Source: Christensenellales bacterium (GTDB lineage Bacteria; Bacillota; Clostridia; Christensenellales; SZUA-584). Taken from it: a stretch of DNA of 64,000 bases. The stretch spans positions 1,299,806-1,363,805 of the forward strand of contig JAXGMA010000001.1 in the NCBI GenBank assembly GCA_040768905.1, in the 5' to 3' direction. Numbering within the stretch: the first letter of the stretch is position 1; the number at the start of each line of letters is the position of its first letter. Below, piece by piece: positions 17,190 to 47,853 of the stretch. The notes under the pieces are model-generated. The model had not been told where the DNA came from. It made no database searches and saw only the letters and a program-made list of their open reading frames with translations. The translations under genes and the position numbers were made by a program.

Positions 17190-17370
17190 TTGTTACTCTC
17201 TCCCTGCGATTGAATAATAATAGCCTGTCCGGCTTTTTTAACTGTGTTCTCTTTAATGACCAGTGTACCATGAATGTGCGCCTGAAAACTAACTTTTTTT
17301 AAAAATAAAACTCTTATTGATCAAACAATATTGGCATGATCGAAAGAGTTGTTGATAAGTCAGAAATGCT

Positions 17371-17402
17371 CAGCAGGCCCGGATAAAAATCCGGACCTGC
17401 TG
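17371..17402 (-). terminator. hairpin between the thiolase and Zn-ADH genes (possible weak terminator or RNA-processing site)
   Basis: CAGCAGGCCCGG / CCGGACCTGCTG is an inverted repeat (11 of 12 bp) with an 8-nt loop. The minus-strand tail is only weakly U-rich. Confidence 0.4.
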
Positions 17403-17426
17403 ATTGATCTCTATTTTTCTTTTGTT

Positions 17427-18689: not shown

Positions 18690-18703
18690 GAATATTCTCC
18701 TTT

Positions 18704-20020: not shown

Positions 20021-20049
20021 TTTTTGTCCTCCTGTATTAAACTTTTTAA

Positions 20050-26495: not shown

Positions 26496-26566
26496 TTTTC
26501 TACCCTCCATATGGTTTAGCCGCTTGGCACTGATACTGTCAAACGTGCTTTTATTTTAGATAGCGA

Positions 26567-26929
26567 TCACTCATCATGCAATACGATGGCTATGAGTTTA
26601 AGCGGTTCTTCGCTGATGCACTTGATGTAATGGGAGCCGCCGCCTCCGGTAAGCATGACGTCCCCCTCGCGCAGGGTTTGTTTTTCCCCGCCGTCGTCGG
26701 AAGTCTCGCCTTCTCCGCTGACCACACAGTAGAACTCTGTATTCCCGTCATGCACATGCGGGCCGATCGAGCAGCCTGTCTCAAGCGTCAACAGCGTTGC
26801 CAGCTTGCACTTTGAAGGCAGATCGCCCTCTTCGCAGAAGTCAGTAAAATGTGCTTTGCCATATCCATCGCATAAGTTTTCTTTTACTCTTTCCGGCCTG
26901 TCCTTATTTTTTATGATCACGTTTATCAC
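26567..26929 (-). CDS. cupin-domain protein
   Basis: 120 aa with cupin motifs GCSIGPHVHDGNTEFYCVVSGEG and GDVMLTGGGGSH. GTG start. Confidence 0.6.
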   Translation of the reverse strand: MINVIIKNKDRPERVKENLCDGYGKAHFTDFCEEGDLPSKCKLATLLTLETGCSIGPHVHDGNTEFYCVVSGEGETSDDGGEKQTLREGDVMLTGGGGSHYIKCISEEPLKLIAIVLHDE

Positions 26930-26953: not shown

Positions 26954-28798
26954 CTACGCGATCCCGAGCATATCAATCAGCTCTTTTTTGGGGATGCCGT
27001 ATTCATCCCAGCCGCGCACTTCATAGTACTCATCGATCATGCCGTCTATATCCGCAATGTTCTCTGCCGCTCCGCCGGTGCCTCTTCTTTTGCGCATCTT
27101 GGGCGGCAGTATATCGTCTTTTCTCGACTGGCCGTCACGCACCTGGTACATCCTCTTTAAGTTGAAGATCCTCTCGCCGCATGCAAGCAGCTCCTCATGT
27201 GTCATATCCCAGCCCGTCACCATATTGATCCACTTGACAAAGGTGCTGAAGGTTTCCCCTTCCATACCGAAGATGATGAACTTACAGCATGTCAGCGAAT
27301 CGCACAGCGCCTGGAAATCCTGCGACACTTTGATGTATTCAGGCTTTCCCTCGGTCGAGAACCTGTCCATGTCCATGCTCTTGTAAAAACCGAACCCGGG
27401 GTAATTCCCTCCCACTTCAAAATCGTGTGTAAACGAGTTTAAGTGGCATGCACCGCGTGTGCTTGTGGCGTACTGAAGCCCGGTGCTGTCGGCTGCGCGC
27501 GGGTCATGCGCGGGAAACTCAAGGCCTCTGACGTGCACCGCGAACTCGGGTGCCAATCCGCCGATTTGCTCTGCTGCTCTTTTTGTCCCCTCGGCAAGGA
27601 TATCGCCGATGCCTTCACGGAAGGCCACCATTTTGATGATGCCGATGAGCGCATCAGCATCGCCCCATTTGGCTTCTATACCGCCCAGCATCTCTTTGGT
27701 GATCACGTTGTTCTCATACGCTTCCATGACAAACGAGACCACGCTGCCTGCGGAGATCGTATCAAGGCCGTAGCGGTTGCACAGCTCGTTGCCGTAGGAT
27801 ATCGCCGCAAGATCGTTGATCATGCAGTTGGCGCCCAACATGCCAAGCGTTTCATATTCGGGCCCGCCGCCTTTGACGCATTTGTACTTGCCTTCTTTGA
27901 TCTCTATCGTCCTGCCGCAGCCGATGGCGCATTGAGCGCAGTTATATGGCTTCACAAGTATTGTTTTGGCAAGCGTTTGTCCGGTGATGGGCTCTACGTC
28001 AAAATTGCCGGCCGTCCAGTTTTTGACGGGCAGGTCTCCCGACGATTCGACCGTTTCCATGCCGCAGGCCGTTCCGTAATTCCTCAGGTAGCTTTTTGTG
28101 TTGTCGTTTATTTTGGGCGCCCATTCTTTGACGCTTTGCTTTAACGCATCCGGCTCGGCAACCTCCGGCGCCATGTTTCCGTTAAGGCTGATGGCTTTAA
28201 GGTTCTTAGAGCCCATCACTGCACCAAGGCCGCAGCGCGCCGTCGTTCTTCCCTCATAACCGTCGTTCATGATGGCTGCGATGCGCACCAGTTTCTCGCC
28301 GGCCGGGCCGATGCTGGCCGTCACCGTCTTTTTGCCGTGCGCTTCTTTCAATATGTCATCGACTTCATAGGTGTCTTTTCCCCAAAGATGCGATGCGTCG
28401 AGAATTTCCGCTTTTCCTTCTTCAATGTTGATATACACCGGTTTTTCTGCTTTGCCTTTGACCACGATGCCGTCATAGCCTGCACGCTTCAATTTGTATC
28501 CCCATGAGCCGCCGGAATTGCCTTCTCCGAAAGAACCCGTGAGCGGGGAACGCGTGATCGCCTGATGCCTTCCGAAATTCGGGACATTTGTGCCGACTAG
28601 AGGACCTGTCATAAAGATAAGCAGGTTATCAGGGCCAAGAGGGTCTGTGTTGCTGTCCGTTTCGTCATATAATATCTTCGCGCCAAGGCCGCTTCCGCCA
28701 AGGTATTTCCTGAGTATCTCCTCAGGGATCACCTCGTCTTTCATGCTGCCGCTCGAAAGGTCCACCCTTAAGATTTTTCCCGTATAGCCATATGGCAT
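26954..28798 (-). CDS. aor: aldehyde:ferredoxin oxidoreductase (tungstopterin AOR family), copy 1
   Basis: About 614 aa. N-terminal YGYTGKILRVDLS, the AOR_N domain, and CAQCAIGC [4Fe-4S]/pterin-region cysteines. AGGAGG lies 8 nt before the ATG at 28798. Confidence 0.9.
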   Translation of the reverse strand: MPYGYTGKILRVDLSSGSMKDEVIPEEILRKYLGGSGLGAKILYDETDSNTDPLGPDNLLIFMTGPLVGTNVPNFGRHQAITRSPLTGSFGEGNSGGSWGYKLKRAGYDGIVVKGKAEKPVYINIEEGKAEILDASHLWGKDTYEVDDILKEAHGKKTVTASIGPAGEKLVRIAAIMNDGYEGRTTARCGLGAVMGSKNLKAISLNGNMAPEVAEPDALKQSVKEWAPKINDNTKSYLRNYGTACGMETVESSGDLPVKNWTAGNFDVEPITGQTLAKTILVKPYNCAQCAIGCGRTIEIKEGKYKCVKGGGPEYETLGMLGANCMINDLAAISYGNELCNRYGLDTISAGSVVSFVMEAYENNVITKEMLGGIEAKWGDADALIGIIKMVAFREGIGDILAEGTKRAAEQIGGLAPEFAVHVRGLEFPAHDPRAADSTGLQYATSTRGACHLNSFTHDFEVGGNYPGFGFYKSMDMDRFSTEGKPEYIKVSQDFQALCDSLTCCKFIIFGMEGETFSTFVKWINMVTGWDMTHEELLACGERIFNLKRMYQVRDGQSRKDDILPPKMRKRRGTGGAAENIADIDGMIDEYYEVRGWDEYGIPKKELIDMLGIA

Positions 28799-28821
28799 TT
28801 TTTTGTCCTCCTTCTTCTTTT

Positions 28822-29100
28822 TCATCCTCCGGCAATGGGAGGCAGTATTTTTAAAACCGTATCGTTTTTTATCATGGAGTCGGGCTTTACGATCGCGTTA
28901 TCCACAACGAAGATCGCGTTTAAGATAGATCCGCGTATCAGTTGAGCGCCCCTGAGCTTTTCTTCAAGCCCCTCTTCGCTCTCAAGCAGCAAGCCGGCCG
29001 CTTCTGCAACTGTAACCGCGTCCTTATCGCAATGTAATTCGACCTCTCTTTTTCCGACGATATCGCTGAGCATCGCGCCTAATATAACCTTGATCTGCAT
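28822..29100 (-). CDS. MoaD/ThiS-family beta-grasp protein with C-terminal Gly-Gly
   Basis: 92 aa ending ...ILPPIAGG. Size and the diglycine terminus are typical of sulfur-carrier proteins. Lies immediately upstream of AOR copy 1. Confidence 0.7.
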   Translation of the reverse strand: MQIKVILGAMLSDIVGKREVELHCDKDAVTVAEAAGLLLESEEGLEEKLRGAQLIRGSILNAIFVVDNAIVKPDSMIKNDTVLKILPPIAGG

Positions 29101-29111: not shown

Positions 29112-30134
29112 CTATATCTCAATAACGACTTTGTAATGGCTGCCGTCTTTATAGCTGAAAGCCATGGCTTCTTTCACCTCATCCAACGGGAAAACATTTG
29201 TCACAAGGCTAAGCAGCTCACTGTTGATGGTGCCTTTTTCCATTGCTTCGATCGCAGCGTAAAAATTCACCTGCGAATGAATCCTGACACCGCGGATATT
29301 GATTTCTTTTAATACAATTTCTATCACGTTCATCAGCACCGGTTTCGACGGAAGCCCCACAAAAACGATGCTGCCGCCGATTTTGCATGCTTTGGATGAT
29401 GCCAGTATGGACGGTTCTAAGCCTGTCACTTCAAAAACAACATCGAACCCTTTATTTTTAGTGATCTTTAGCGCTTTATCCATATAATCCGGTTCAAAGG
29501 GATTCACCGCTTTGAACCCAAGTTTATTGATAGTACTGAGCCTGTATTCATTGACCTCGCTGATGACCACATCGGCCGCGCCGGCCATTCTTGCAACCAA
29601 TGCAATAAGGACGCCAATGGGGCCGCCGCCGATCACCAGCGCCCTGTCCCCAACTTTTAAGCCGCTGTTGCGTACGTCATGCATAGCGACTGCCAAAGGT
29701 TCGGTCATCGCGGCAAGTTTCAAATCTATACTTTTGGGTATTTTATAGACTTTATTCAGCGGCACTTTTACATACTCGGCAAAACTTCCAAATTCATGAA
29801 CGCCGAGCAGCTTTAACTGTGCACAGATATTGTCTCTTCCGGATAAACACGCTTCGCAGCTGCCGCAGCTGTGATAAGGCTGGATCACGACGTTGTCTCC
29901 GGGTTTCAGATCCGTGTCTTTATCTGTTTTGACATCTTCAATGATCCCGGAAATCTCGTGTCCCAGAATCAAAGGCAACACAGCAGTCGGATGATGGCCG
30001 TTGAAAACATGAAGATCCGTTCCGCATATTCCGGCGTATTTAACTTTTACCAGTGCTTCGCCGTGAGTTATTTTTGGTATTTCGATGTCTTTCAGGCTCA
30101 TTTCGCCCCATTTTTCAATATATGCTGCTTTCAT
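29112..30134 (-). CDS. zinc-dependent alcohol/polyol dehydrogenase (MDR family)
   Basis: 340 aa with GICGTDLH, GHEISG, structural-zinc cysteines (CGSCEACLSGRDNIC) and GGGPIG. Confidence 0.85.
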   Translation of the reverse strand: MKAAYIEKWGEMSLKDIEIPKITHGEALVKVKYAGICGTDLHVFNGHHPTAVLPLILGHEISGIIEDVKTDKDTDLKPGDNVVIQPYHSCGSCEACLSGRDNICAQLKLLGVHEFGSFAEYVKVPLNKVYKIPKSIDLKLAAMTEPLAVAMHDVRNSGLKVGDRALVIGGGPIGVLIALVARMAGAADVVISEVNEYRLSTINKLGFKAVNPFEPDYMDKALKITKNKGFDVVFEVTGLEPSILASSKACKIGGSIVFVGLPSKPVLMNVIEIVLKEINIRGVRIHSQVNFYAAIEAMEKGTINSELLSLVTNVFPLDEVKEAMAFSYKDGSHYKVVIEI

Positions 30135-30190: not shown

Positions 30191-30889
30191 TTAGCGCCAA
30201 TCCTCCATGCTGTACAGCTTCAAACCATCCAAATTGATACCGTAAAAAGACGAAAGGTGCGAAACGATGTGTTTCAATACTTTTCCTGTGTTTCTCTCAA
30301 AAAGTGCTTCAACGATCAGATCATGATGTTCTATCTTTTTGAGGCTGTCTTGAACATCCAGATATTTTGTTGCCTGCAAAAGCTGAATTTTCAGGTACAG
30401 CTCTTTTTGCATTTTGAGCAGAAAATCATTATTACCGATCTTCGTCAGCTCTATATGAAAATCACAATCTTTTTTGATCCTGTTGAACATATCGCCCTGC
30501 ATGGCTGCCTCTTTGCACTCTTCTGCAATATTTCTTAGATTTAGAAAATCCGCATTGCTGCCATACTGGACGGCGTACTGGGCGGCCAGACAATCCATGT
30601 TGATTCTGAGCAGGCCAAGATCTTTGATTTCTTTATCCGAAAATGAGATGACTTCTGCATGCCTGTTGGGATAAATATTGACAAGCCCCTGCATGGACAG
30701 CTTTCTCAGAGCTTCACGGATCGGTGTTCTGCTGACACCCAGCTGCAGCGCTATTTTCTCCTCCTGCAGTTTCTCTCCGCATTGAATTTGCTTATCTAAA
30801 ATCATGCTTTTGATATACTCATGCACCAAGACCGACAAATTCTTTCCGACAAACTTTGGATCGCTCTGAATCTCTTTTAGTCCTTCCAT
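30191..30889 (-). CDS. GntR-family transcriptional regulator, FadR/FCD subfamily
   Basis: 232 aa with an N-terminal winged HTH (EEKIALQLGVSRTPIREALRKL) and a helical FCD-type C-terminal domain. Confidence 0.85.
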   Translation of the reverse strand: MEGLKEIQSDPKFVGKNLSVLVHEYIKSMILDKQIQCGEKLQEEKIALQLGVSRTPIREALRKLSMQGLVNIYPNRHAEVISFSDKEIKDLGLLRINMDCLAAQYAVQYGSNADFLNLRNIAEECKEAAMQGDMFNRIKKDCDFHIELTKIGNNDFLLKMQKELYLKIQLLQATKYLDVQDSLKKIEHHDLIVEALFERNTGKVLKHIVSHLSSFYGINLDGLKLYSMEDWR

Positions 30890-30953: not shown

Positions 30954-31882
30954 TCAATCCTGAACAAACCCTGACCCGCCAATGCTGACTCTGAGCCCCG
31001 CGTTTTCTGCAAGCTTTTTGCATTGCTGCGCTTTTTCGGTGCTTTGTTCCGGCCAGTCATGCATCTCGTACATGCTGCCTGTCATCTCATACTTTGATGA
31101 TCCGATCTGATGGAAAGGCAGTATATGCATCTCGCTCACGCCGTCAAGCCCCGCAGCAAACCGCACAATTTTCCCGAACTCATTCTCATCATCGTTCACA
31201 TCGGTGATCAGCGGCACGCGTATGATCATCTTCGCACCCATACCGGCCAGCCTTTGCGCGTTTTCAAGTATTAAACTGTTGTCAACGCCCGTCCACTTCA
31301 TGTGGAGCTTTGCATCTACCGCCTTGATGTCATAAAGAAAAAGATCAGTATACGCGGCAATTTCCTTTAAATTTTCCCATTTGGCATAGCCGCACGTCTC
31401 TACCGCTGTGTGTATCCTTTCATGCCGCAAGCGCTTGAGCAGTTCAACACAGAATTCTTTATGCTGCGTCGGTTCGCCTCCGCTCAGCGTGACCCCTCCG
31501 CCAGATGTCCTGAACACGACCTCATCCTTCATGACTTCCTTGAAGAGCGTGCTCACTGTATACAGCTTGCCTGAAGGGTTCCGCGCATTGAAATAGCATT
31601 CTTCAACGCATTTGAAGCAGTGTGTGCACTTGTCAAAGTCCGTCAGTACATTTGCGTCTGCGTCTGCATGAATGGCGCCTTCCGGACAAACGGGTATACA
31701 CGCCATACATTTGCTGCAGTTGTATTCATTGAACATCAGCCGGGGCTTGTTGGGTATGGCCTCCGGATTCTGACACCACTTGCACCTAAGCGGGCATCCT
31801 AAAAAAAAACTATGGTGCGCAAACCCGGCCCGTCATGCAATGAACACCTCTGGATATTTGAAACATATACATTATACTCCAT
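30954..31882 (-). CDS. glycyl-radical-enzyme activating enzyme (radical SAM), interrupted by a 1-nt frameshift in a homopolymer
   Basis: The ATG at 31882 (2 nt after the GRE stop) gives MEYNVYVSNIQRCSLHDGPGLRTIVFF*, stopping at 31799. One frame over, the reading continues (L)GCPLRCKWCQNPE... (CX3CX2C motif) into the 260-aa tracked ORF, which has ferredoxin-like CxxCxxCxxxCP clusters and GGEP. The break is the A9 run at 31801-31809. Confidence 0.85.
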
Positions 31883-31884: not shown

Positions 31885-34230
31885 TTACAAACCTTTCTCA
31901 AATCTTTTTATGATGTTATCCTGCTGCACGGGAGCCATCGCTATAAAGTAAGCGGAAAGCCCCCCCATTCTCACTCTTAAATCCTGATGCTTCTCCGGAT
32001 TGACTTTGGCATCCTTTAGATCTTCCGCATTGGTGCTGGTGATCGTCAGGATCTGCCCGCCGAGATTACAGAAAGATTTTATAAGATTTTTGAGCCTGTC
32101 AAGCCCGGCTTCATCTGCATAATCATTGGAGTTCTCGGCAATATCGACAGGCGTTCCGCAGTAATACTTGATCAAAGAAGGCTTGCTGATGGTCTTGAAT
32201 ATCGCGGTTGCCCCGTTCACATCTGCGCCTGCTACCGGCGAATAGTTGGGTGCGAGCGGTCCGCCGAACTCACGTCCGTCTGCCGATGCGCCGATATCAC
32301 GGCCAAGCACAGCATAATTTTCAAATGTGCCGATCCCGACAGGGAACATCATGACATTTTGCTTCCTGCGCCAGATCTCGACACGGTCTTCAAAATCTTT
32401 AAGCAGCCGAACCGCTAAATCATCCACGTAGTCATCATCATTCCCGAATTTGGGAACCATGTTTTTGGCCATTGCGCGCAGGCGCTCATGCCCTTTCCAG
32501 CCGTCTTTGAGGGCCTGTACAATCTCTGACATCTTGACCTTTTTTTCTTCAAAGACCAGCTTTTTGATCACAGCCAGAGAATCGACCGTATTGGCAAGGC
32601 CGGTCACAAGGATCAGATGGAAGATGTATTTGGCGCCGTCTTGCGAAATATCCCTGCCTTTTTCGATGCAGTTGTCGATCATTGTTGAGAACAACGGGTC
32701 CGGCGCGATCATAAACGACAAACCGAAATTTTCGAGCCTGCGTTTGCACTGAAAATCGATCGCTTCGAACATTTGCTTCTTATAGGCGGCATAGAACATC
32801 TCAAAATTGTCAAACTCACAAGGATCGCCCGTGTCAAGCCCTTCACGCACGTTGTTGTTGAGCGATACGCCCCTGTGGAGCACCCATTCCAGACAGCGCA
32901 GGTTCATCACATGCGCATAGCTGAAATGGCTCTTTCCGGCAACAAGCGTCTCCCAGCAGCCATCATTGCTGTAATCACGCGCGTCCTCGACCGGTATGCC
33001 GATATCCACGAAACCCGGAATGATGGTGTCGTCATTATATATCATCGGTTCGCCCTGGCCGTACCTTAACGCATTGGCGATGGTTTTATAGAATGCATCA
33101 GGGGTATCCTTATGGACCCTTGCTGCCAGCGTCGGCATAAGCAGCGACATTTCGTGCATCAGATCGATAAAGAGGTAAGAAACCTCGTTCGTCGCATCTT
33201 TTCCGTCTCTACCGAGACCGCCGACGATACAGTTCATCAGCCAGTCATTGCCCGACTGCCCGTAGTTAAAGTTGGCTTCGCTGTCATCGGGTTCGTTTTC
33301 CTGCCATGTGAGCCCTCTTTGCTCAAAGCCGCCTGTGATCGTCTTTGCAAGGGCTTCGTCGGGCACGAGCCCCTGGGAAAATAAACCGAAGCTGTAGTGG
33401 TTCTCAGCCTGTTTGGTATCGATGATGATGCGCTCGTTGCATTTGATGAGAAAACTGCCGATAAGATCAAGCGCACGCTCTTTCGTGATGCGTTTTTCAT
33501 CAAGGTCTTTTTTGTAATAAGGATAAATATACTGGTCTGCCCTGCCGAGAGGTACATATTCGCCGCCGCTGTTGACCATACAGTAAATAAACCAGAAGGA
33601 TTGCAGCGCTTCATGCAGGGTACGGGCAGGCTTTTGCGGCACATGAGAACATGCCTCATAAATCTCCAGCAATTCCCTCTTGCGAATGACATCTTCACAG
33701 GCAAGAGACTGTTTGAGTGCTTCCTGTGCATGCCTTTTTGCAAAATCCACAACGCCGTCAAGCGCAATGATCATCGCCCGGTATTCAATAAGCGCCGCTT
33801 CATCCGGATGGGATGCGCGCATCTGGCGTTCTATCGCCGCGCCTATCTCCTGTTTTAATCCATCGATGCCGATCTCGATGACCTTATCGTACTGCGGCGG
33901 ATGGTGCCCCCATATCGAGGCTTCGTTCAGCTGGTACTTCGCCGCTTCTTCGCCCTCTTCTTTGGTATAATAAATGGGCATCACCGTTCCCCAGCCGACG
34001 CTGTTCTGGTTGGGGTTGCCGACAATAAGCTCATCCGGTTTGATGATCGCCGGCAGGTGATTTCCGATATAGGCCTGCGCCATCGCCTTGCGCACAACAA
34101 GCGGTTCGCTTACAAGATGCTCGTTTCCGTCGAGAATATTGGTATCGACAAAATGCCACACGCCTTTGTCTTTATATTCGACGTTGAACAACCTATCTTT
34201 TAATTTTTCAAGCCTGCTTGTCAGTTCCAT
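31885..34230 (-). CDS. glycyl radical enzyme, PFL2/dehydratase-like but divergent
   Basis: 781 aa. DELIVGN N-terminal motif, Cys-loop NDGCWE (GCxE type), FGNDDDYVD, GASADGR, and C-terminal radical-domain motif RVRMGGLSAYF in place of the usual RVAGYSAxF. RBS AAGGAGG. Confidence 0.9.
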   Translation of the reverse strand: MELTSRLEKLKDRLFNVEYKDKGVWHFVDTNILDGNEHLVSEPLVVRKAMAQAYIGNHLPAIIKPDELIVGNPNQNSVGWGTVMPIYYTKEEGEEAAKYQLNEASIWGHHPPQYDKVIEIGIDGLKQEIGAAIERQMRASHPDEAALIEYRAMIIALDGVVDFAKRHAQEALKQSLACEDVIRKRELLEIYEACSHVPQKPARTLHEALQSFWFIYCMVNSGGEYVPLGRADQYIYPYYKKDLDEKRITKERALDLIGSFLIKCNERIIIDTKQAENHYSFGLFSQGLVPDEALAKTITGGFEQRGLTWQENEPDDSEANFNYGQSGNDWLMNCIVGGLGRDGKDATNEVSYLFIDLMHEMSLLMPTLAARVHKDTPDAFYKTIANALRYGQGEPMIYNDDTIIPGFVDIGIPVEDARDYSNDGCWETLVAGKSHFSYAHVMNLRCLEWVLHRGVSLNNNVREGLDTGDPCEFDNFEMFYAAYKKQMFEAIDFQCKRRLENFGLSFMIAPDPLFSTMIDNCIEKGRDISQDGAKYIFHLILVTGLANTVDSLAVIKKLVFEEKKVKMSEIVQALKDGWKGHERLRAMAKNMVPKFGNDDDYVDDLAVRLLKDFEDRVEIWRRKQNVMMFPVGIGTFENYAVLGRDIGASADGREFGGPLAPNYSPVAGADVNGATAIFKTISKPSLIKYYCGTPVDIAENSNDYADEAGLDRLKNLIKSFCNLGGQILTITSTNAEDLKDAKVNPEKHQDLRVRMGGLSAYFIAMAPVQQDNIIKRFEKGL

Positions 34231-34251: not shown

Positions 34252-35232
34252 TCATTTTATAATGATGTTTCTTGAGCTCCTGTCTGCCGTGATAAAGATC
34301 GCGATCAGCAGCAGCAATCCGAAAACGATCTGCTGATAAAATGAATCGAGCCCGACAGCTGAGATGCCATTCTGGATGATCGCCACAACCGCGCAGCCGA
34401 CCGTCATCCAGAGCGCGTTGCCTCTGCCGCCTGACAGCGATACACCGCCCAATACAGCTGCGGCAATGCACATCAGGGTGAGCGGGTCTCCGACGTACGG
34501 CGAAGCGCTTTTAAGTTTTGCGACCAATAGAATGCCCATCATACTGCTCAAAAACGCGCTCACCACATAGGCGAACATTTTTGTCTTGCGGATCGGGACA
34601 CCCGCCATGCGCGCCGCTTTTTCATTTGCGCCGATAGCATATATGTATTTCCCGAGGCTCGTTTTTTTCAGCAGGATATAGGCGATTATAACGACCGCTA
34701 CACCGATGAGGAAGTAAACAGTGAATATATCGATGACCGTGATCTTGGTAAAATCAAAGATTTCCCCTTGTGCACGCGGCACCGATACGGATCCGGAACC
34801 GGAAACGACAAGCGCAAGGCTGTTCCATATGCTCATGGTCCCGAGTGTCGCGATAAACGAGGGTATCTTCACAAACGTAAACAAAAATCCGTTTAACAGC
34901 CCCGCCAGTATGCCGAACAGCAATGGCAGCAGGATGCCGCCTGCGCCGCCTAAAGCTCCGAGCAGCGTGGCGCACAGCACTGCAGAGAACGAGCAGACGC
35001 CGCCCAAAGATAAGTCAATGGAGCCGATAATCAAAACAAACGTGATGCCTGCGCCCATAACCAGAAAAGTCGTCATGTCGGTGAGCAGGTTCTTGATGTT
35101 GAGCGGCCGCAAAAAATTCGGATTGATCGAAGTGATCACAACGACAAGCACCACGATGACAAGCAAGCTGATGTATCTTGTGATGTTGGCTCCGCTCGTG
35201 TTGATTTTTAATCTGTTCATTAAAGGTTTCAT
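34252..35232 (-). CDS. ABC sugar transporter permease (RbsC/CUT2 type)
   Basis: 326 aa, multi-pass hydrophobic protein with the branched-chain/ribose-type permease pattern (GSIDLSLGG). Confidence 0.85.
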   Translation of the reverse strand: MKPLMNRLKINTSGANITRYISLLVIVVLVVVITSINPNFLRPLNIKNLLTDMTTFLVMGAGITFVLIIGSIDLSLGGVCSFSAVLCATLLGALGGAGGILLPLLFGILAGLLNGFLFTFVKIPSFIATLGTMSIWNSLALVVSGSGSVSVPRAQGEIFDFTKITVIDIFTVYFLIGVAVVIIAYILLKKTSLGKYIYAIGANEKAARMAGVPIRKTKMFAYVVSAFLSSMMGILLVAKLKSASPYVGDPLTLMCIAAAVLGGVSLSGGRGNALWMTVGCAVVAIIQNGISAVGLDSFYQQIVFGLLLLIAIFITADRSSRNIIIK

Positions 35233-35244
35233 GTTTGTCTCCCC

Positions 35245-36771
35245 CTACATCATCAATTTAACGATATCGACTTGTTCGGGCTTGTTTTCGCGCCCCGCTT
35301 CAAACTCTCCGGTAATAAGGCCGTCTTTCATGGTCAGTACCCGGTTTCCAATCCCGATGCATTCGGCCAATGTGTCTCCCAAAAGTATGACCGCAAGGCC
35401 TGTTTTTGTGGCTTCTCTGATGATCGAATATATTTCTTCCTTCGCGCCGACATCAACGCCTCTTGTGGGGTGGTTGAGTATCAACACCTTGGCTTCAGAA
35501 GCCAGAACTCTCGAAAAAACGACCTTCTGCGCATTGCCGCCGCTCAGTGACTCGACAAGCTCTTGCTCACTGCTGCATTTGATATTTAATTTGCCGATCC
35601 ACTCCTTGGACTTTTTGAGCTGCTTGCCTTTTGAGATGAAAAGGCCGGAGCTGACGTTCTTGTAATTGGAAAGGCAGATGTTTTCGTAAACAGGCAGGAT
35701 GCCGAGTATACCTTCTTCCCGCCGTTCCTTGGGTATAGAAAGTATGCCTTTTCTCAATGCCGCGGACGGCTCTGCGTTGGATATTTTTTTGCCGAAAAGC
35801 TCGATGACGCCCGAGGTTGCTTTATCGTCACCTGCGATGACTTCGCAGACCTCCTCTTTGCCGGAACCCACAACGCCCGCGATACTGATGACTTCGCCCT
35901 CATGCAGGTCAAAGCTCACATCACGGAAAGCGCCCTTTTTACTCAAGTTTTTCAAACTGAGCACCACATTGTCTTTGGGGTCAGTCTGTTTGTCGATCTT
36001 GTAGTATTCGCCTGTTCCGCTCCTGCCGACCATCAGCTCGTAGATCTTATCTTCGTTGGCCTCTGATGTCTTGATTTCACCGACGTTTTGTCCGTCCTTG
36101 AAGACATAAATACGATCCGTAATCTCAAGAACCTCGTCAAGACGGTGCGAGACAAAGATGACGGCATTGCCCTCTTCTTTAAGTTTTTTCATCTCGGTAT
36201 ACAACTGCTTTATTTCTGCGTCGCCGAGCACAGATGTCGGCTCGTCAAGCAATATGATCGCCCTGTCTGATTTTGAGCTTCTTGCCGTGTTGAGCACCTT
36301 GGCGATCTCCACCATCTGCCTTTTTGCAAAAGTCAGCTCTCCCGCTTTCTTTTCCGGCGGGATGTCCTCGTTATCGATTTCTTTTAATATGTCGGCGGCC
36401 GCTGTGTACATTTTGCGCCAGTTGATAAAGCCGAATGTCTTAAACTCCTTTTCCTTGCCGAAGAAGATATTCTGGCCGACTGTCAGATTGGAAACGATAG
36501 ATTGTTCCTGAAAAACCATGCCTACGCCCAGCGCATTGGCTTCCCGCGGGTTCCGCGGCGCATACTTTTTGCCGCGTATCAGCATTTCGCCTTTATCAGC
36601 GCGTTCCACACCGTTGATGATCCTGAACAGCGTCGTCTTGCCGGCGCCGTTCTCGCCGACCAACCCAAGGATCTCGCCTTCATATATGTTGAGGTTAACG
36701 CTCTTTAACGCCTGCACCCCCGGATATGTTTTGTTTATGTCTTTAGCTTCAAATAACAGCTTCTTTTCCAT
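35245..36771 (-). CDS. ABC sugar transporter ATP-binding protein (duplicated ATPase, RbsA type)
   Basis: 508 aa with Walker A GENGAGKTT, LSGGNAQK signature-like motifs and two nucleotide-binding halves. Confidence 0.9.
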   Translation of the reverse strand: MEKKLLFEAKDINKTYPGVQALKSVNLNIYEGEILGLVGENGAGKTTLFRIINGVERADKGEMLIRGKKYAPRNPREANALGVGMVFQEQSIVSNLTVGQNIFFGKEKEFKTFGFINWRKMYTAAADILKEIDNEDIPPEKKAGELTFAKRQMVEIAKVLNTARSSKSDRAIILLDEPTSVLGDAEIKQLYTEMKKLKEEGNAVIFVSHRLDEVLEITDRIYVFKDGQNVGEIKTSEANEDKIYELMVGRSGTGEYYKIDKQTDPKDNVVLSLKNLSKKGAFRDVSFDLHEGEVISIAGVVGSGKEEVCEVIAGDDKATSGVIELFGKKISNAEPSAALRKGILSIPKERREEGILGILPVYENICLSNYKNVSSGLFISKGKQLKKSKEWIGKLNIKCSSEQELVESLSGGNAQKVVFSRVLASEAKVLILNHPTRGVDVGAKEEIYSIIREATKTGLAVILLGDTLAECIGIGNRVLTMKDGLITGEFEAGRENKPEQVDIVKLMM

Positions 36772-36801
36772 AAATACACCGCTCCTTTGTTTCTGGGTTG
36801 A

Positions 36802-37818
36802 TTATTTGTTGACAAGTTTACGGCCTCTGGTCACCGAAACCGCGACAGCGGCCAGTATGATGGCTCCCTGTATTCCCGTTTGTATCGTGGCATCGACGCC
36901 TGACATGATAAGGCCGTTTTGCAGCACGGTGACGATGGCAGCGCCCAACAGCGTATTGACCACGCCGCCTTTGCCGCCGCTCAGCGCAGTGCCGCCGACA
37001 ACGACCGCAGTCAAAGCCGGAAACAGCTGGTTTTGCCCGGAGAGTATCGTTCCCCTCCCTAATTTGCCCGCACTGAGAACGCCCGCAACACCGACGCACA
37101 GCCCGGCCAGCACAAATGATATGATCTTGACCTTGTCGATGCTGATGCCGGAGACTTTGGGTATCGTCTCGTTATCGCCGATAGAATAGATATACCTGCC
37201 GTAAGCCGTGTAGCGCTGTATGACGAACATGATGAGGAAAACAACTATGCCGACCAAAAACGTATACGGTACCATGCCGGCGATGTCTCCGTTCACGAGC
37301 GTCTTTAAGAAATCATATTGAAGGAATGCGGGTATGCCCTGATAGGAGAGCATCCCGGCGCCGGCCGCCACGCTTGACATCGCCAGGGTGACCATGAAAG
37401 AAGGCAGCTTGGCTTTGACGTGTATATAACCGTTTATAAAGCCGATCGCGCCGCAGCACAGTACAGAAAGAATCAGGCCGAAAATCCCTAGGTCAAGGGG
37501 GAACTTATCGCTGATTACAAAGATGCTGATGATAGAAGCGGAAAACCCCATCACGCCCTCAAGTGAAAGGTCAATACTGCCCATGATGACGACAAATGTC
37601 AAACCGAGAGAGAGAATTAGCGGTATCGCCAGTTGGTTGAGTAATGCCCTTATGTTCATGGGCGCCAAAAAGGATGGCTGTGCGATCATAAAGACCACGA
37701 TGAGCAAAAAGAGAATGATGACCGGTGCGATCCTGATAATCTTCGCCTTGGTGTTCTGCGCTTTGACCTGTTGCGCGAACTCTTCACCCACGGTAAGCTT
37801 TTTATTGTTTTCTGCCAT
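36802..37818 (-). CDS. ABC sugar transporter permease (RbsC/CUT2 type)
   Basis: 338 aa hydrophobic protein with GSIDLSLEG. Second permease of the same system. Confidence 0.85.
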   Translation of the reverse strand: MAENNKKLTVGEEFAQQVKAQNTKAKIIRIAPVIILFLLIVVFMIAQPSFLAPMNIRALLNQLAIPLILSLGLTFVVIMGSIDLSLEGVMGFSASIISIFVISDKFPLDLGIFGLILSVLCCGAIGFINGYIHVKAKLPSFMVTLAMSSVAAGAGMLSYQGIPAFLQYDFLKTLVNGDIAGMVPYTFLVGIVVFLIMFVIQRYTAYGRYIYSIGDNETIPKVSGISIDKVKIISFVLAGLCVGVAGVLSAGKLGRGTILSGQNQLFPALTAVVVGGTALSGGKGGVVNTLLGAAIVTVLQNGLIMSGVDATIQTGIQGAIILAAVAVSVTRGRKLVNK

Positions 37819-37994
37819 AGTGTTTCCTCCCGGTTAATGATATAAGTTAAATAACACCGACAACTATATAGACCATTCCAATTATATCATACGCCCCGAG
37901 ATGTTACGCCTCGAGGCGTTAGTTTTCAAGCTTTTTATAAGTACAGTCCTCTATTTTTTTAGGGGCATTTTTTATGATAATGCCTGATTTTTAT

Positions 37995-38020
37995 GAAGGG
38001 AAGCGCAAGCGCTTCCCTTC
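37995..38020 (-). other. perfect 12-bp hairpin just downstream of the binding-protein gene (RNA stabiliser or partial terminator)
   Basis: GAAGGGAAGCGC-AA-GCGCTTCCCTTC is a perfect inverted repeat with no strong U-tract. An extended -10-like TGATATAAT follows on the minus strand before the permease gene. Confidence 0.5.
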
Positions 38021-38035
38021 ACATTTTCTAAAGTA

Positions 38036-39196
38036 TTAGTCTTGGATCAACGGGATATCCCACGGTGCATAGATCATGCTGGAAATGTCCGTGAAGTCGA
38101 ACGACGGCGTGCTAGCTAAGAATTCGTCAACTGTGTCAGCCGTAACAAGAACACCGGATGTCAGGAAGCTTCTCTGATCAAGCGGAAGCTCTGAAGGCAC
38201 GATGTTTCCTGCCCATGCCTGATACAGGTATGCGAGGCCCATGCCGCCCTGTTTGTAAGGATCGCTGAACACTGACGCTGTCATCTTTCCGGCTTTGATA
38301 GCCTGAACAGCGCCGTCGATGCCGTCAACGCCAACGACCTTGATCTTGCCGATGAGGTCTTTTGCCTCAAGCAGCTCTACGACCGAGAGAGCCATACTGT
38401 CATTCGCGCACCAGATGCCGTCGATATCGCTGTACTTCGCCAGCCATGTCTCAGCAATTGTGTAAGCCTGCTGCGGATCCCAGTCAGCCGGCAGATCTTC
38501 GAGCAGCTCTACGCCCGGATATTCCGCCAAAGCTTTCTTCAAGCCTTCGAAACGGTTGATCGCCGCGCTGTTGGCAAGCATGCCCTGGATCGCAAGGACC
38601 TTGCCTTCGCCCGGTGTGTCGAAACTCTCAAACATGGCTTTTGAGATGTTGTAACCGGAGCCGTTGTCATCGAGAGTCTGGTGGAACACATAGTATTCGT
38701 AGTCTTTGATCTTGAGCTCATCAGCTGTGCTCCATGTTGTGCTCCAATATACCTTATTTTCTTCGCAGTATTCCGCGATCGGGACAGCATTCGGAGCATT
38801 GTTAGGATCAACAGTGACTATGCAGTTCGGTGCATAAGACGCGATAAAGTCTCTAACAACCGTCAGCTGCTTTTCATCGCTTCCATCGCTGACCAACATG
38901 ACAACTTCACAGTCTTGTCCCTGACTCTTGAGCCAATCTGCAAACATCTGGCCGCCTTCCTGCAGCTGGATGTAATACGGATTTGTCAAAGATCTGATCG
39001 CCATGCCGAGGTAGAGTTTTTCTCCCGCAGCGGGTGCTGGTGCATCAGGCTCTTGAGCATCAGGCTCTTGAGCAGCCGGCTTTTCAACAGCAGGGGCCTC
39101 CGTGTCAGGTGTTTGGGTTTGCGGCTGGCAACCTGCCATCACGATGCTCAGCGCGAAAACCAGAGCGAGAATCATTACTACTGCTTTTTTCAACAT
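38036..39196 (-). CDS. ABC sugar/polyol-binding lipoprotein (periplasmic-binding-protein type I)
   Basis: Signal peptide plus lipobox (LSIVMAGC), a Pro/Glu/Ala-rich linker, then a PBP-type fold. The ATG at 39196 has AGGAGG 5 nt upstream. Confidence 0.85.
   Translation of the reverse strand: MLKKAVVMILALVFALSIVMAGCQPQTQTPDTEAPAVEKPAAQEPDAQEPDAPAPAAGEKLYLGMAIRSLTNPYYIQLQEGGQMFADWLKSQGQDCEVVMLVSDGSDEKQLTVVRDFIASYAPNCIVTVDPNNAPNAVPIAEYCEENKVYWSTTWSTADELKIKDYEYYVFHQTLDDNGSGYNISKAMFESFDTPGEGKVLAIQGMLANSAAINRFEGLKKALAEYPGVELLEDLPADWDPQQAYTIAETWLAKYSDIDGIWCANDSMALSVVELLEAKDLIGKIKVVGVDGIDGAVQAIKAGKMTASVFSDPYKQGGMGLAYLYQAWAGNIVPSELPLDQRSFLTSGVLVTADTVDEFLASTPSFDFTDISSMIYAPWDIPLIQD
39042..39071. repeat. 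perfect 15-bp tandem duplication inside the lipoprotein linker
   Basis: GCATCAGGCTCTTGA occurs twice in tandem. It encodes the repeated AQEPD motif of the linker. Confidence 0.9.
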
Positions 39197-39388
39197 ACTT
39201 TCCTCCTTGTTTATTATCACCGAAGGGCTGGGTATATAATAATACTGCGCACCTTCAGAATGAAAAACGGTTATTGATAGCGATTATTTTCTGTTTGCTT
39301 TGTTTCCCCTTAAGACAGTTTTGAAATAACTGGTGCGTTCTGTCACATAATGGTATTCTATCATATTTCTTTGTACTTTATATGCGTT

Positions 39389-39495: not shown

Positions 39496-40266
39496 TTATT
39501 GTCTTGGCTGTCCGGTATGTGCGGTCATGCCGCCGTCAGCGGTTATGCAAGTGCCGGTGATAAACCCGGACTCATCAGAGGCAAGGAAATACATGATGTT
39601 GGCGATATCCTCTGGCTTTGCGATCCTTTTCATCGGAAAAGCGTTTTCAAACATGCTGACAACCTCTGGCGGATTGCTCAGGAACATAGGCGTACCTGTA
39701 GCACCGGGGCAGATCGCATTAACACGGATACCTTTATCCGCATAATCGAGCGCCATGGCTTTTGTCAGCGTCACGACCGCGCCTTTTGATGCGTTGTAAG
39801 CTGCCGCGCCATAGTCTCCGTACAGGCCGGAAACTGAAGCGACATTGATGATTACGCCGCTTTTTCTTTCCAGCATCTGAGGCACAAAATGCTTTGACAG
39901 CAGATAAATGGCTTTGACATTGACGTTGAACACAGCATCCCAATCCGCTTCTTTGACCTCATGGATCATCCCGCCTCGGAAAATGCCGGCATTATTGACT
40001 AAAACGTCACATCCCCCTATTTTTTCATTTGTATATTTGACAAGATTGATCACATCTTGTTCATCGCTGATGTTGCCATGAAAATAATGCAGCCGGCCCT
40101 GTGCTGCCTGCGCCTTGTGTTCGGCGAGCAGCTCATTGGCCATCGGCTCATTGACATCAACAAAAACAACGGAACACCCGTTCAGTAAAAATTTTTCTAC
40201 CGCAGCTTTTCCCATCCCTGAACTTCCGCCCGTGATGAGAACTCTTTGACTGTCCATATTGATCAT
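39496..40266 (-). CDS. short-chain dehydrogenase/reductase (SDR)
   Basis: 256 aa with TGGSSGMG, NNAG and the YxxxK motif (YNASK). Confidence 0.85.
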   Translation of the reverse strand: MINMDSQRVLITGGSSGMGKAAVEKFLLNGCSVVFVDVNEPMANELLAEHKAQAAQGRLHYFHGNISDEQDVINLVKYTNEKIGGCDVLVNNAGIFRGGMIHEVKEADWDAVFNVNVKAIYLLSKHFVPQMLERKSGVIINVASVSGLYGDYGAAAYNASKGAVVTLTKAMALDYADKGIRVNAICPGATGTPMFLSNPPEVVSMFENAFPMKRIAKPEDIANIMYFLASDESGFITGTCITADGGMTAHTGQPRQ

Positions 40267-40480: not shown

Positions 40481-40951
40481 ATGGAAAACTTTGATGGCCT
40501 TTTGCTGCAGCTGCTCGAAGAAGAGAAAAGCCTGCAATTCACTGAATTCAGCAATCAGACTGCGCTCCAGATCGGTTTGATTTTGGTTGATCTTGCTAAA
40601 GCGCGCGGCCTAAGCGTGGCTATAGACATCACAAGAAACGGGCATCAGCTTTTTCATTATGCTTTTGCCGGCACTTCACCCGATAATGACCGCTGGATCA
40701 AAGGCAAAACCAAGATCGCTAATATGGTGGGGCACAGCTCCTACTACTGCGAAATGTTTTTCAAGAACAGAGGCACCACAGTCGAGCCGGATTTTCACCT
40801 GTCCCATCTTGAGTATCTGCCTTACGGCGGCAGCTTTCCGATTATCATTGCAAACACAGGCATGATCGGTACGATCACCGTTTCGGGCTTGCCTTCGGAA
40901 GACGACCATAAACTTGTTGTCGAGGCCATAAAAAAATATTTGGGGAAATAA
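40481..40951 (+). CDS. UPF0303 / heme-degrading-domain (GlcG-like) protein
   Basis: 156 aa. The pattern (LQFTEFSNQTALQIG ... NDRWIKGKTKIA) is recalled from the UPF0303 family. Confidence 0.6.
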   Translation: MENFDGLLLQLLEEEKSLQFTEFSNQTALQIGLILVDLAKARGLSVAIDITRNGHQLFHYAFAGTSPDNDRWIKGKTKIANMVGHSSYYCEMFFKNRGTTVEPDFHLSHLEYLPYGGSFPIIIANTGMIGTITVSGLPSEDDHKLVVEAIKKYLGK

Positions 40952-40974
40952 TAATCATTAAGGAAGGTGTGAAG

Positions 40975-47699: not shown

Positions 47700-47853
47700 T
47701 TTTGCACCTCTTATCAACATTCTGAGGACTGTTTACATCCTCATTCACTATATGTACAGCTGTTAAGAAGCGTGTCGGGCGGAAGAAAAACGCAGAAAAA
47801 GAATAAAGCCACGTTAAAAAACGGGCTTGCCATAAAAACACCGGCATATTTTT

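Follow-up and report, generated by a model that had tools for sequence, protein, structure and literature searches.

A glycyl radical enzyme of an uncharacterised clade, with a relaxed Gly loop and a rebuilt pocket, in a gene cluster with a split transketolase

Introduction

Our question was what reaction is catalysed by the 781-aa glycyl radical enzyme (GRE) encoded near the middle of a 64,000-nucleotide stretch of DNA from a Christensenellales bacterium (contig JAXGMA010000001.1), the whole of which we call the window. The original prediction, made from the sequence alone, took it for an elimination-type enzyme of an uncharacterised subfamily with atypical signature motifs, and this interpretation proved essentially right. 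The GRE belongs to a distinct, sizeable and uncharacterised clade with a relaxed Gly loop, a rebuilt substrate pocket and a conserved, unusual pathway context. The best reading of its sequence is that of a functional 1,2-eliminase-type GRE within a large clade marked by the Cys loop NDGCWE and the Gly loop R[M/L/V]GG[L/W/F]. As to what it acts on, we favour on balance a terminal-diol dehydratase whose substrate would be sugar-derived and larger than glycerol, working in a transketolase-linked fermentation of sugars or polyols. The GRE clades newly assigned so far have each revealed a new route (choline to trimethylamine, hydroxyproline, sulfonates to H2S, and anhydroglycolysis). Whole clades are still without experimental validation (PMC13450708).

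The gene, its two loops and its fold

For comparison we used glycerol dehydratase of Clostridium butyricum (GDH, 1R8W) and propanediol dehydratase of Roseburia inulinivorans (PD, 5I2G), whose sequences were rebuilt from HMMER output; their lengths match the PDB numbering and His164 and His166 fall where the literature has them. YbiW and PflD were taken from E. coli K-12, and C441 and E443 of YbiW agree with a recent review (PMC13450708). Invariance was judged in 38 family members. The gene begins with ATG behind the ribosome-binding site AAGGAGG and lies on the minus strand, which the original prediction had left unstated; every motif that it quoted was found.

31885..34230, minus strand: GRE of the NDGCWE clade, 781 aa (ATG-started open reading frame, PF02901 and PF01228, AlphaFold2 model, Foldseek)
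33895..33912, minus strand: WGHHPP motif; His109 codon 33904-33906, equivalent to GDH His164, PD His166 and CutC Asp216
33247..33399, minus strand: clade-specific insertion, aa 278-328 (FGLFSQG...NFNYGQSGNDWLMN), seen with MAFFT and not in GDH, PD, YbiW or PflD
32950..32967, minus strand: Cys loop NDGCWE, aa 422-427; Cys425 codon 32956-32958; Glu427 is the CXE glutamate; invariant in the family
31945..31977, minus strand: Gly loop RVRMGGLSAYF, aa 752-762; Gly757 codon 31960-31962, placed by ungapped alignment and model
aa 66-72 of the GRE: DELIVGN
aa 595-603 of the GRE: FGNDDDYVD
aa 647-653 of the GRE: GASADGR
aa 724-738 of the GRE: GGQILTITSTNAEDL

Both a PFL-like barrel domain (PF02901, 475.7 bits) and a C-terminal glycyl radical domain (PF01228, 52.4 bits) are present. 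The Gly motif had been called atypical, and the string RVRMGGLSAYF is indeed there; what did not stand is its register. The HMMER and MAFFT alignments with CutC, GDH, PD, YbiW and PflD are ungapped (DLRV-RMGGL-SAYF against DLVV-RVAGY-SAFF), so that RMGGL is the counterpart of RVxG[FWY] and the radical glycine is G757. The motif thus differs by substitution, and a two-residue insertion in the loop is ruled out by the same alignments. The GRE fingerprint around the radical glycine is RVxG[FWY]x6-8[FL]x4Qx2[IV]x2R (PMC13450708). Our protein reads RMGGL-SAYFIAMAPVQQDNIIKR and does not match it in full: Gly, Q, I and R are retained, while V has become M and the aromatic residue L. RMGGL is a relaxed form of the fingerprint, a trait of the clade, without loss of the glycine. 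This relaxation bears on motif-based mining for GREs and on how the activase recognises the loop. The strand before the Gly motif had also been reported to differ from GGxHxQFNV; the quoted string is present, and the clade reads GG.I.TIT there.

An AlphaFold2 model built from 38 family sequences has a pLDDT of 90.4 and a pTM of 0.91, with residues 293-304 as its sole disordered or low-confidence part. In this model strands 752-755 and 758-761 form a hairpin with G756/G757 at its tip, and D423-E427 occupy the tip of another, with Cys425 between strands 420-422 and 428-430. Foldseek places the model among many GREs with a probability of 1.00 and a TM of ~0.83, PD, GDH and CutC being equally near at 25-28% identity.

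The catalytic residues Cys425 (GDH C433), Glu427 (E435), His109 (H164) and Gly757 (G763) are invariant in the 38 members. All GRE eliminases and isomerases keep CXE (PMC13450708), and at the sequence level it is found here as the invariant G-C425-W-E427, aligned with C441 and E443 of YbiW; the NDGCWE loop with its retained Glu had been described correctly. The RxDQY motif is retained and the G(N)DxD motif is common with GDH and PD. His109 aligns with His164 of GDH in both HMMER and MAFFT, which makes it a dehydratase-type His, although a non-specific one, as YbiW and PflD also have it. The residue set is therefore that of a C-O cleaving CXE enzyme, and it does not separate a dehydratase from a ring-opening isomerase. 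The residues support the claim of an elimination-type GRE and would suit an isomerase too.

A clade apart from the characterised enzymes

Could the protein be a divergent member of a family that is already known? It falls below all NCBIfam equivalog cut-offs. For the PFL2-3 subfamily model TIGR01774, which would mark a glycerol or propanediol dehydratase, it scores 404 bits against a cut-off of 678.2; for HypD (NF043068) 391.7 against 1100; for CutC (TIGR04394) 382.8 against 1050; and for the sulfonate models HpsG and HpfG 374.8 and 315.8 against 1000. Among solved chains its best HMMER scores are 367 and ~320 bits, to CutC, PD, GDH and HypD, with CutC highest, and those to the YbiW and PflD structures are 243-272 bits. 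Alignment identity is 33% to GDH, 32% to PD and 29% to each of YbiW and PflD, and 25-26% to the HypD-type structures 6VXC, 8ID1 and 8IOF (Foldseek). The best identity to a characterised GRE is thus ~33%, well short of the 60% that would have spoken for a known enzyme. Membership of the isomerases YbiW and PflD is not supported at 29% identity and with an ATP-binding cassette (ABC) transporter in place of a phosphotransferase system (PTS), although a similar mechanism is possible. In the aminoacyl radical enzymes Thr, Ser or Ala replaces the radical glycine (PMC13450708), and with Gly757 invariant our protein is not one of them.

The June 2026 review of the superfamily covers GD, PD, HpfG, HypD, HpyG, HpzG, CutC, IslA/IseG, HpsG, the isomerases HplG/YbiW/PflD and the aminoacyl radical enzymes, and no enzyme in it corresponds to this GRE (PMC13450708). 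In the literature on GREs together with aldehyde:ferredoxin oxidoreductase, transketolase, 4-hydroxybutyryl-CoA dehydratase, erythritol, butanetriol, dihydroxybutyrate, 4-hydroxybutyrate, inositol or semialdehydes we found no paper on this family.

A word-indexed search returned at least 120 clusters (90% identity) at 58-79% identity, all with generic 'pyruvate formate-lyase' names. RVRMGGLSAYF occurs in 81 of these 120 homologues, most of the others having one-residue variants, and [ST/C][ND]DGCWE in nearly all. Such recurrence means that neither RVRMGGLSAYF nor NDGCWE is due to chance or error. The three motifs are thus common, but in a clade that is itself uncharacterised, for which reason they do not assign the protein to a known family, and the call of an uncharacterised subfamily is borne out. 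Named sources are Lachnospiraceae, Epulopiscium, Spirochaetes, Clostridium pasteurianum and C. algifaecis; the clade occurs in Clostridia, and part of the retrieved contigs are labelled human-gut metagenome. The cultivable member in C. pasteurianum offers a tractable host.

The boundary of the family could be drawn with a HMMER search of 1.84 billion representatives. The family proper is one cluster at 50% identity (1190 bits), beyond which scores drop to 754 bits and then grade into the general GRE background at 310-350 bits. About 25-30 of the top representatives, each a cluster at 50% identity, carry the NDGCWE Cys loop and make up a superclade, in which a GG.I.TIT strand replaces GG.H.QFNV and the Gly loops read R[M/L/V]GG[L/W/F/S]. 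Part of it is canonical in the Gly loop (RVGGF, RVGGW), and RMGGL is therefore a derived state within a coherent superclade. Two clade patterns, run against metagenomes in one scan, yielded 354 confirmed relatives. Scanning the genome collection with patterns back-translated from the one protein gave only two distant GREs, these patterns being too specific.

In the distant part of the NDGCWE clade, paired GRE genes stand side by side in several fetched loci, which we cite by number (L029, L044, L052/L053 and L059). L029 has a GRE ~46% identical to our protein and a paralogue next to it, both of the NDGCWE type, with the Gly loops RVRLGGLTAYF and IVRVGGFQAYF. Such adjacent pairs suggest paralogous specialisation within the clade.

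A rebuilt substrate pocket

The residues of the substrate pocket, in contrast to the catalytic set, have changed. Relative to GDH, H281/S282 have become E224/Y225, Y339 L331, V434 W426, Y640 G634, S642 (V696 in PD) F636 and I644 N638, and the D447 segment is deleted. MAFFT alignment with GDH and PD also shows ~40 residues before β1 to be absent and ~50 residues (278-328) to be inserted; N320, Q325 and N328 are conserved in this insertion region, as is W330. Judged from these aligned positions, the substrate pocket is predicted to differ from that of every characterised GRE. The sugar-acting GREs have each shrunk a single pocket tyrosine (S662 of YbiW at the Y640 site, G325 of PflD at the Y339 site). 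In our family both are shrunk, to L331 and G634, and the pocket is therefore read as one that would suit something larger than glycerol.

The pockets of other known families are not found either. The CutC-type residues are replaced (Asp216 by His109, Thr502 by F436, Tyr506 by H440, and also Phe395 by L331 and L698 by G634), and where HypD-type enzymes have an Asp, at the position of S282 in GD, our protein has Y225. IslA and HpsG anchor the sulfonate with two Arg and a Gln (PMC13450708). This Arg/Gln/Arg anchor has no counterpart at L101-A104 and F636/E637, the correspondence being taken from numbering offsets and not from an alignment of IslA itself. A site for anionic substrates as in the sulfonate lyases was rejected, with no Arg or Lys at the mapped positions, where the residues are polar uncharged or acidic.

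These residues also bear on whether a group other than hydroxyl could be the one that leaves. As in CutC or isethionate lyase, the enzyme might break a C-N, C-S, C-P or ether C-O bond in a substituted sugar-derived alcohol; the invariant acidic E224 and E637 could bind a cationic group, and a split transketolase upstream of a GRE follows the reported logic of the sulfo-transketolase route to isethionate. We consider this very improbable, since His109 is dehydratase-like at the position of CutC Asp216, the sulfonate-binding site is missing (PMC13450708), and no sulfite reductase, amine-handling or phosphonate genes occur in the loci examined.

The surrounding genes and their conservation

The context of the gene had been described as unlike that of known GREs, and this was upheld: it combines a CUT2-type sugar ABC transporter, a tungsten-type aldehyde:ferredoxin oxidoreductase (AOR), zinc alcohol dehydrogenases (Zn-ADH), a split transketolase (TK) and 4-hydroxybutyrate enzymes. 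From 40266 down to ~14576 all genes are on the minus strand. Besides the GRE and its activase, the neighbourhood holds the following features, the transporter and its parts being assigned with Pfam and NCBIfam.

40969-41994, plus strand: GFO/IDH/MocA oxidoreductase, divergent from the next-but-one gene listed (39496-40266)
40481-40951, plus strand: HbpS/GlcG-like gene, divergent from the next gene listed
39496-40266, minus strand: short-chain dehydrogenase/reductase (SDR), as annotated; homologues near the GRE elsewhere
34252..39220, minus strand: CUT2-type sugar ABC transporter
38036-39220, minus strand: its binding protein, closest to allose-/ribose-type proteins
36802-37818, minus strand: its first permease
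35245-36771, minus strand: its ATPase
34252-35232, minus strand: its second permease
30191..30889, minus strand: GntR/FCD transcriptional regulator, recurring beside family GREs
29112..30134, minus strand: Zn-ADH1, a polyol-, threonine- or butanediol-type dehydrogenase (domain and structure matches)
28822-29100, minus strand: MoaD/ThiS-like small protein (Pfam)
26954-28825, minus strand: tungsten-type AOR (Pfam)
26567-26929, minus strand: cupin
25374-26510, minus strand: iron alcohol dehydrogenase (Fe-ADH)
23909-25354, minus strand: 4-hydroxybutyryl-CoA dehydratase AbfD, HpaB-family (761 bits to 1U8V)
22599-23903, minus strand: 4-hydroxybutyrate CoA-transferase AbfT (510 bits to 3GK7)
21754-22602, minus strand: split TK, N subunit, cofactor residues retained
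20780-21739, minus strand: split TK, C subunit, cofactor residues retained
20050-20778, minus strand: crotonase
18704-20110, minus strand: 3-hydroxyacyl-CoA dehydrogenase
17427-18689, minus strand: thiolase-like protein
16143-17189, minus strand: second Zn-ADH
14576-16093, minus strand: xylulokinase (XylB, 391.8 bits, passing the cut-off of 380.25)

Spacing is operon-like from the transporter genes to the β-oxidation-type genes: gaps are at most 64 nt from the first permease to the 3-hydroxyacyl-CoA dehydrogenase and at most 30 nt from the transporter genes to the GRE, and a 237-nt gap follows past the thiolase-like gene. In a promoter and terminator scan the counts were not above shuffled expectation, and are therefore taken as no more than weak support for long transcripts. 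A 12-bp perfect hairpin (37994-38021) separates the gene for the binding protein from that for the first permease; it may stabilise or attenuate the mRNA between these cistrons, as an element of a kind frequent 3' of binding-protein genes.

The HpaB-family protein matches 1U8V over its full length and retains the Fe-S cluster ligands (CFQRC and the His/Cys cluster ligands), which identifies it by sequence as a genuine 4-hydroxybutyryl-CoA dehydratase. Against solved structures, the binding protein and the Zn-ADH gave only generic matches, of allose/ribose type and of polyol/threonine/butanediol type, and these hold no clue to the substrate. No microcompartment shell, pyrroline-5-carboxylate reductase or sulfite-reduction genes were found among the annotated neighbours in the window.

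How much of this context is conserved was surveyed by exact-protein look-ups and by searching 89 fetched loci with every protein of the window (tblastn); 13 of the family loci are well flanked. Eight of these 13 contain the split TK, at 50-58% identity. Homologues of Zn-ADH1 (45-52% identity) occur in most of the 13 and adjoin the GRE in L006, L009, L010, L011, L017, L018, L021 and L073. An aldehyde oxidiser, too, is next to the GRE in the majority of well-flanked loci: beside the GRE and its activase stands an aldehyde dehydrogenase (AldDH, PF00171) or AOR in the window and in L006, L009, L010, L014, L017, L021, L025 and L073, and likewise in L044, L045 and L057. GFO homologues (58-63%) and SDR homologues (44-56%) adjoin the GRE in L009, L016, L021, L005 and L008. 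Two gene orders illustrate the arrangement: ABC-cupin-TK-ZnADH-SDR-GFO-GRE-activase-AldDH in L021, and AldDH-GRE-activase-FeADH-AbfD-AbfT-TK-Hbd-ZnADH-GntR-VOC-ACAD in L010. L009 has the same parts as L010, interleaved and with AOR; in both, AbfD and AbfT lie between the GRE and TK. The transporter beside family GREs varies in type (CUT2 ABC, MFS, SSF).

The C. pasteurianum locus (L006, CP112872.1) contains TK, Zn-ADH, Rpe, two AldDH genes, MFS, GRE, activase, RpiB and PFK. At 16742-19162 of this locus, 4 kb from the family member, is a second, canonical GRE (690 bits to GDH 1R8W), whose C-terminus past RVAGYS reads CYASNYLILKKSNYFSLKLVIMW and not the usual helix. Mu-transposase-/integrase-like genes come next, an adjacent activase is missing, and this second GRE looks truncated by a mobile element.

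Even GREs of just ~42% identity (L038, L044, L045 and L057) are still linked with TK and AldDH. In that part of the clade a CoA-acylating malonate/methylmalonate-semialdehyde dehydrogenase (MMSDH), which passes TIGR01722, directly follows TK (L044 14692-16209, L045 15614-17125), a position that would suit a TK whose product there is a C3 acid semialdehyde. Of the partner AldDHs, this second one of the distant clade alone passes a cut-off; the nearest curated families of the others are lactaldehyde-, AldA- and SSADH-like, all below cut-off.

The transketolases themselves hint at what they accept. In the window, L005, L009, L010, L021 and L045 the GRE-linked split TKs keep all cofactor residues, the donor histidines, R358 and R520 (the R358/S385 region was aligned by eye). 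In all six examined H461 has become Ser or Trp and D469 Asn, the window enzyme having S and N. H461 and D469 we take, from the yeast and E. coli enzymes, to serve phosphate binding and recognition of the 2-hydroxyl of the aldehyde partner. The changes suggest an altered specificity for the aldehyde partner and hint at one that may be unphosphorylated, 2-deoxy or both.

Two of the rival explanations turn on these neighbours. In the first, the GRE would isomerise a cyclic or anhydro sugar without phosphate by opening its ring, a carbinol radical undergoing β-scission of the ring C-O bond and the deoxy-ketose passing to Zn-ADH and TK. YbiW and PflD share the Cys/Glu/His set of our GRE, and their pockets are likewise enlarged at the tyrosine positions (PMC13450708). 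Sugar-type transporters are adjacent, and GFO/IDH/MocA oxidoreductases and AP_endonuc_2 proteins lie near several GREs of the family and clade, enzyme types typical of anhydro-sugar, inositol and C-glycoside pathways. We nevertheless regard the isomerase as unlikely: at 29% identity YbiW and PflD are no nearer than the dehydratases, nothing in the context points to a PTS or to sugar phosphates, an aldehyde product more simply accounts for the AldDH or AOR that is almost always its partner, and a 1-deoxy-ketose is without the C1 hydroxyl required of a transketolase donor. A related thought was an inositol-type origin of the substrate, prompted by GFO/IolG-like, KduI/IolB-family, AP_endonuc_2, PfkB and class II aldolase neighbours in some loci. 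It was set aside as a bare possibility, there being no IolB, IolD or IolE in the window and no IolD in any locus examined.

In the second, which is decidedly unlikely in our judgement, the GRE would dehydrate a small diol (ethylene glycol, 1,2-propanediol or glycerol) after TK, with glycolaldehyde or glyceraldehyde reduced to the diol by Fe-ADH, turned into an aldehyde by the GRE and oxidised by AldDH. PD and GDH are its closest structural neighbours, the Cys/Glu/His set is identical, Fe-ADH and the partner AldDHs score best, always below cut-off, against lactaldehyde-/glycolaldehyde-type enzymes, and a GlcG/HbpS-like gene is close by. The glycerol-binding S282, D447, Y339 and Y640 are however all replaced or deleted, both tyrosines in favour of smaller residues; identity is ~33%, with a score below the PFL2-3 cut-off; and microcompartment genes are absent from the annotated neighbours. 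Nor would it account for the genuine AbfD and AbfT genes, which in L009, L010 and the window are mixed in with those of the GRE and TK.

The activase

A GRE needs its radical put in place, and the gene that follows encodes a candidate for this.

30954..31882, minus strand: GRE-activating radical SAM enzyme, 309 aa if read across the T9 run (31801-31809), in which the frame breaks by -1

The ATG of the activase (31882) lies 2 nt past the GRE stop. The protein scores 253.9 bits for TIGR02494 against a cut-off of 174 and has the CX3CX2C motif as CPLRCKWC, and reading through to it needs a -1 shift in the T9. Frame 0 gives MEYNVYVSNIQRCSLHDGPGLRTIVFF and then TAG, and the remainder, beginning LGCPLRCKWCQNPE, is in the -1 frame. 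The break falls in the stretch 31799-31882, and no other homopolymer in the 64-kb window, of 50% GC, reaches nine. GTT TTT TTT TAG forms a perfect X XXY YYZ slippery heptamer (U UUU UUU) abutting the stop, and the same T9 is found in an independent metagenome contig (L019/L080), ~3% divergent, in the stretch 785-870 of L080. In 40 other clade activases the frame is intact, with T-runs of at most 7 at these codons, one of them having the identical VFFLGCPLRC. Substitutions between the window and the L080 strain are distributed as follows.

Activase upstream of the break: 3 synonymous, 0 non-synonymous
Activase downstream of the break: 17 synonymous, 3 non-synonymous
GRE: 65 synonymous, 10 non-synonymous
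GntR: 14 synonymous, 4 non-synonymous

Purifying selection is thus seen in both frames (20 synonymous against 3 non-synonymous), so the activase is being maintained, which argues for a functional enzyme. The T9 site may be a T10 that was miscalled, or the gene may be expressed by transcriptional slippage or a -1 frameshift. Transcriptional slippage is known to occur where T is repeated nine times or more. The other way to view the break is that the system is inactive, the activase a frameshifted pseudogene and the GRE a relic. The activase as sequenced does read MEYNV...IVFF*, short of the CX3CX2C motif without a -1 shift, and the T9 is present in the second strain too. Against the selection seen in both genes over ~3% divergence, the slippery heptamer with its stop codon and the two ways in which such a run may be read or misread, we find this scarcely credible.

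A possible pathway

Returning to the terminal-diol dehydratase that we favour, its reaction can be outlined in steps. The activase would generate the Gly757 radical, and Cys425 would abstract H from a carbinol carbon. The vicinal diol attacked would belong to a sugar alcohol taken up by the cell, or to a hydroxy-acid that derives from a sugar and exceeds glycerol in size. Glu427 would deprotonate the hydroxyl at the radical carbon, while the neighbouring hydroxyl would be protonated by His109 and lost as water, and return of the H atom would give a 2-deoxy-aldehyde. This would be oxidised by AOR or AldDH, or reduced by Fe-ADH. Zn-ADH would make a ketol from which transketolase transfers a C2 unit to the pentose-phosphate pool, and the leftover C4 would become succinic semialdehyde or 4-hydroxybutyrate and pass through 4-hydroxybutyryl-CoA to crotonyl-CoA. 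Candidate substrates are a tetritol, pentitol or hexitol, 1,2,4-butanetriol and 3,4-dihydroxybutyrate, and the order of the steps is equally provisional.

Three schemes would accommodate most of these parts. In scheme (a) an alditol would give a 2-deoxy-aldose (GRE), a 2-deoxy-aldonate (AldDH or AOR), a penultimate ketone (Zn-ADH) and then a C2 unit plus an acid semialdehyde (TK); with a pentitol the product would be malonate semialdehyde, matching the MMSDH of the distant clade. In scheme (b) a TK-derived C4 would be oxidised to 3,4-dihydroxybutyrate, which the GRE would turn into succinic semialdehyde for Fe-ADH, AbfT and AbfD. In scheme (c) a tetritol or 1,2,4-butanetriol would yield 4-hydroxybutanal and then 4-hydroxybutyrate. 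Scheme (b) is disfavoured because the pocket has no cationic site.

The fuller proposal is a tentative one, which we hold to be possible rather than probable: a new GRE dehydration (sugar alcohol to 2-deoxy-aldose, or 3,4-dihydroxybutyrate to succinic semialdehyde) feeding a largely non-phosphorylative anaerobic pathway to butyrate, in which it would act with a specialised split TK (H461S, D469N), a polyol dehydrogenase and an aldehyde oxidiser, with the activase made through a conserved -1 frameshift or slippage at the U9. If true, sugars or polyols would be cut, by a route so far undescribed, into a C2 unit that enters the pentose-phosphate pool and an acid semialdehyde of three or four carbons, the latter going on in this lineage via 4-hydroxybutyryl-CoA to crotonyl-CoA and butyrate. 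The association of TK, an aldehyde oxidiser and 4-hydroxybutyrate enzymes in any case gives a concrete hypothesis for a new fermentation of sugars or polyols towards butyrate.

Several points weigh against the dehydratase and the pathway built on it. The Cys, Glu and His that the GRE retains are found just as well in YbiW and PflD, both of which open rings, and the pocket was analysed by sequence alignment and not from the coordinates of the model. A hydroxy-acid substrate is hard to reconcile with a pocket that has no Arg or Lys at the mapped positions and in which E224 and E637 are invariant, and no single substrate can be deduced from sequence. Schemes (a) and (c) on an ordinary tetrose or hexitol would need two dehydrations to arrive at 4-hydroxybutyrate, and hence one promiscuous GRE or a pre-deoxygenated substrate. 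The aldehyde oxidiser could act on the TK product and not on that of the GRE. The 4-hydroxybutyrate genes stand beside the GRE in only 3-4 of the ~13 well-flanked loci, and the activase is out of frame as sequenced.

Other features of the window

A second module (49847-57803, minus strand) comprises a GntR/UTRA regulator, a GFO oxidoreductase, a Zn-ADH, a cupin-type glucose-6-phosphate isomerase (GPI), a D-2-hydroxyacid dehydrogenase, a 441-aa protein without a Pfam match (55679-57004) and a second AOR (51681-53510). Counterparts of the 441-aa protein, the cupin-GPI and the 2-hydroxyacid dehydrogenase, 53-68% identical, lie just upstream of the GRE operon in L010 and not in the other loci. Being common to L010 only, this module of AOR, GFO and Zn-ADH is placed outside the conserved core.

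Further away, a type 2A encapsulin shell protein (SrpI-like; 46716-47720, minus strand) adjoins a cysteine desulfurase (45245-46789, minus strand) that is extended by ~130 residues at its N-terminus. The two look like an encapsulin-cargo pair (45245-47720), which seems unrelated to the GRE. At the other end of the window an ordinary biosynthetic block (143-12827, plus strand) begins with the carbamoyl-phosphate synthase large subunit, an aspartate/ornithine carbamoyltransferase-family protein (OTCace) and a GNAT acetyltransferase, and runs on into a complete operon for shikimate/chorismate/prephenate, whose last gene encodes a fused shikimate dehydrogenase-kinase.

Comparison with known systems

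Among known systems GDH and PD resemble this GRE in fold (TM ~0.83), in the Cys-x-Glu motif, the leaving-group His (H164/H166 for H109), the radical Gly, RxDQY and G(N)DxD, in having a dedicated activase with a ferredoxin domain and, probably, in forming an aldehyde. They differ at 32-33% identity in having RVAGY where ours has RMGGL, V and not W in the Cys loop and a QFNV and not a TIT strand; the substrate residues are changed, and our GRE has neither a microcompartment nor a dha-type context. CutC shares the fold and the CXE loop and gives the best sequence score among solved structures. It differs in its ~28% identity, in the Asp216 that corresponds to His109, and in the cut-type microcompartment genes, which are missing here.

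A parallel in chemistry could be that of the dehydratase HpfG and the reductase HpfD, which convert (2S)-3-sulfopropanediol (DHPS) to 3-sulfopropionaldehyde and then 3-hydroxypropanesulfonate (PMC13450708, PMC11489063). A terminal vicinal diol becoming an ω-aldehyde and then an ω-alcohol is what we propose for this GRE, and 3,4-dihydroxybutyrate, succinic semialdehyde and 4-hydroxybutyrate would be the carboxylate analogues of the DHPS route, a parallel that we infer only. The enzymes themselves differ, ours scoring 315.8 bits against the HpfG cut-off of 1000 and having no sulfonate-binding arginines.

YbiW and PflD, the ring-opening isomerases of 1,5-anhydrohexitol-6-phosphates ('anhydroglycolysis'), are the only characterised GREs on sugar-sized substrates. 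They are like our GRE in their Cys, Glu and His, in a pocket enlarged by loss of a pocket tyrosine, and in passing the product to C-C cleaving sugar enzymes. They are unlike it in their canonical RVAGY, GC[IV]E and QFNV motifs, and where they use sugar phosphates delivered by a PTS and an aldolase as partner, our family has an ABC, MFS or SSF transporter, TK and an aldehyde oxidiser.

Finally, the logic of the operon recalls the sulfo-TK pathway with a GRE isethionate lyase in which a split TK reportedly strips C2 units from a sugar refractory to aldolase and the GRE takes the leftover fragment. The C. pasteurianum member has RpiB, Rpe and PFK alongside. Unlike that pathway, our GRE lacks a sulfonate-binding site, genes for sulfoquinovosidase, sulfite or isethionate are missing, and while the GRE of the sulfo-TK pathway is usually in another organism or operon, here the GRE and TK are found together in one operon.

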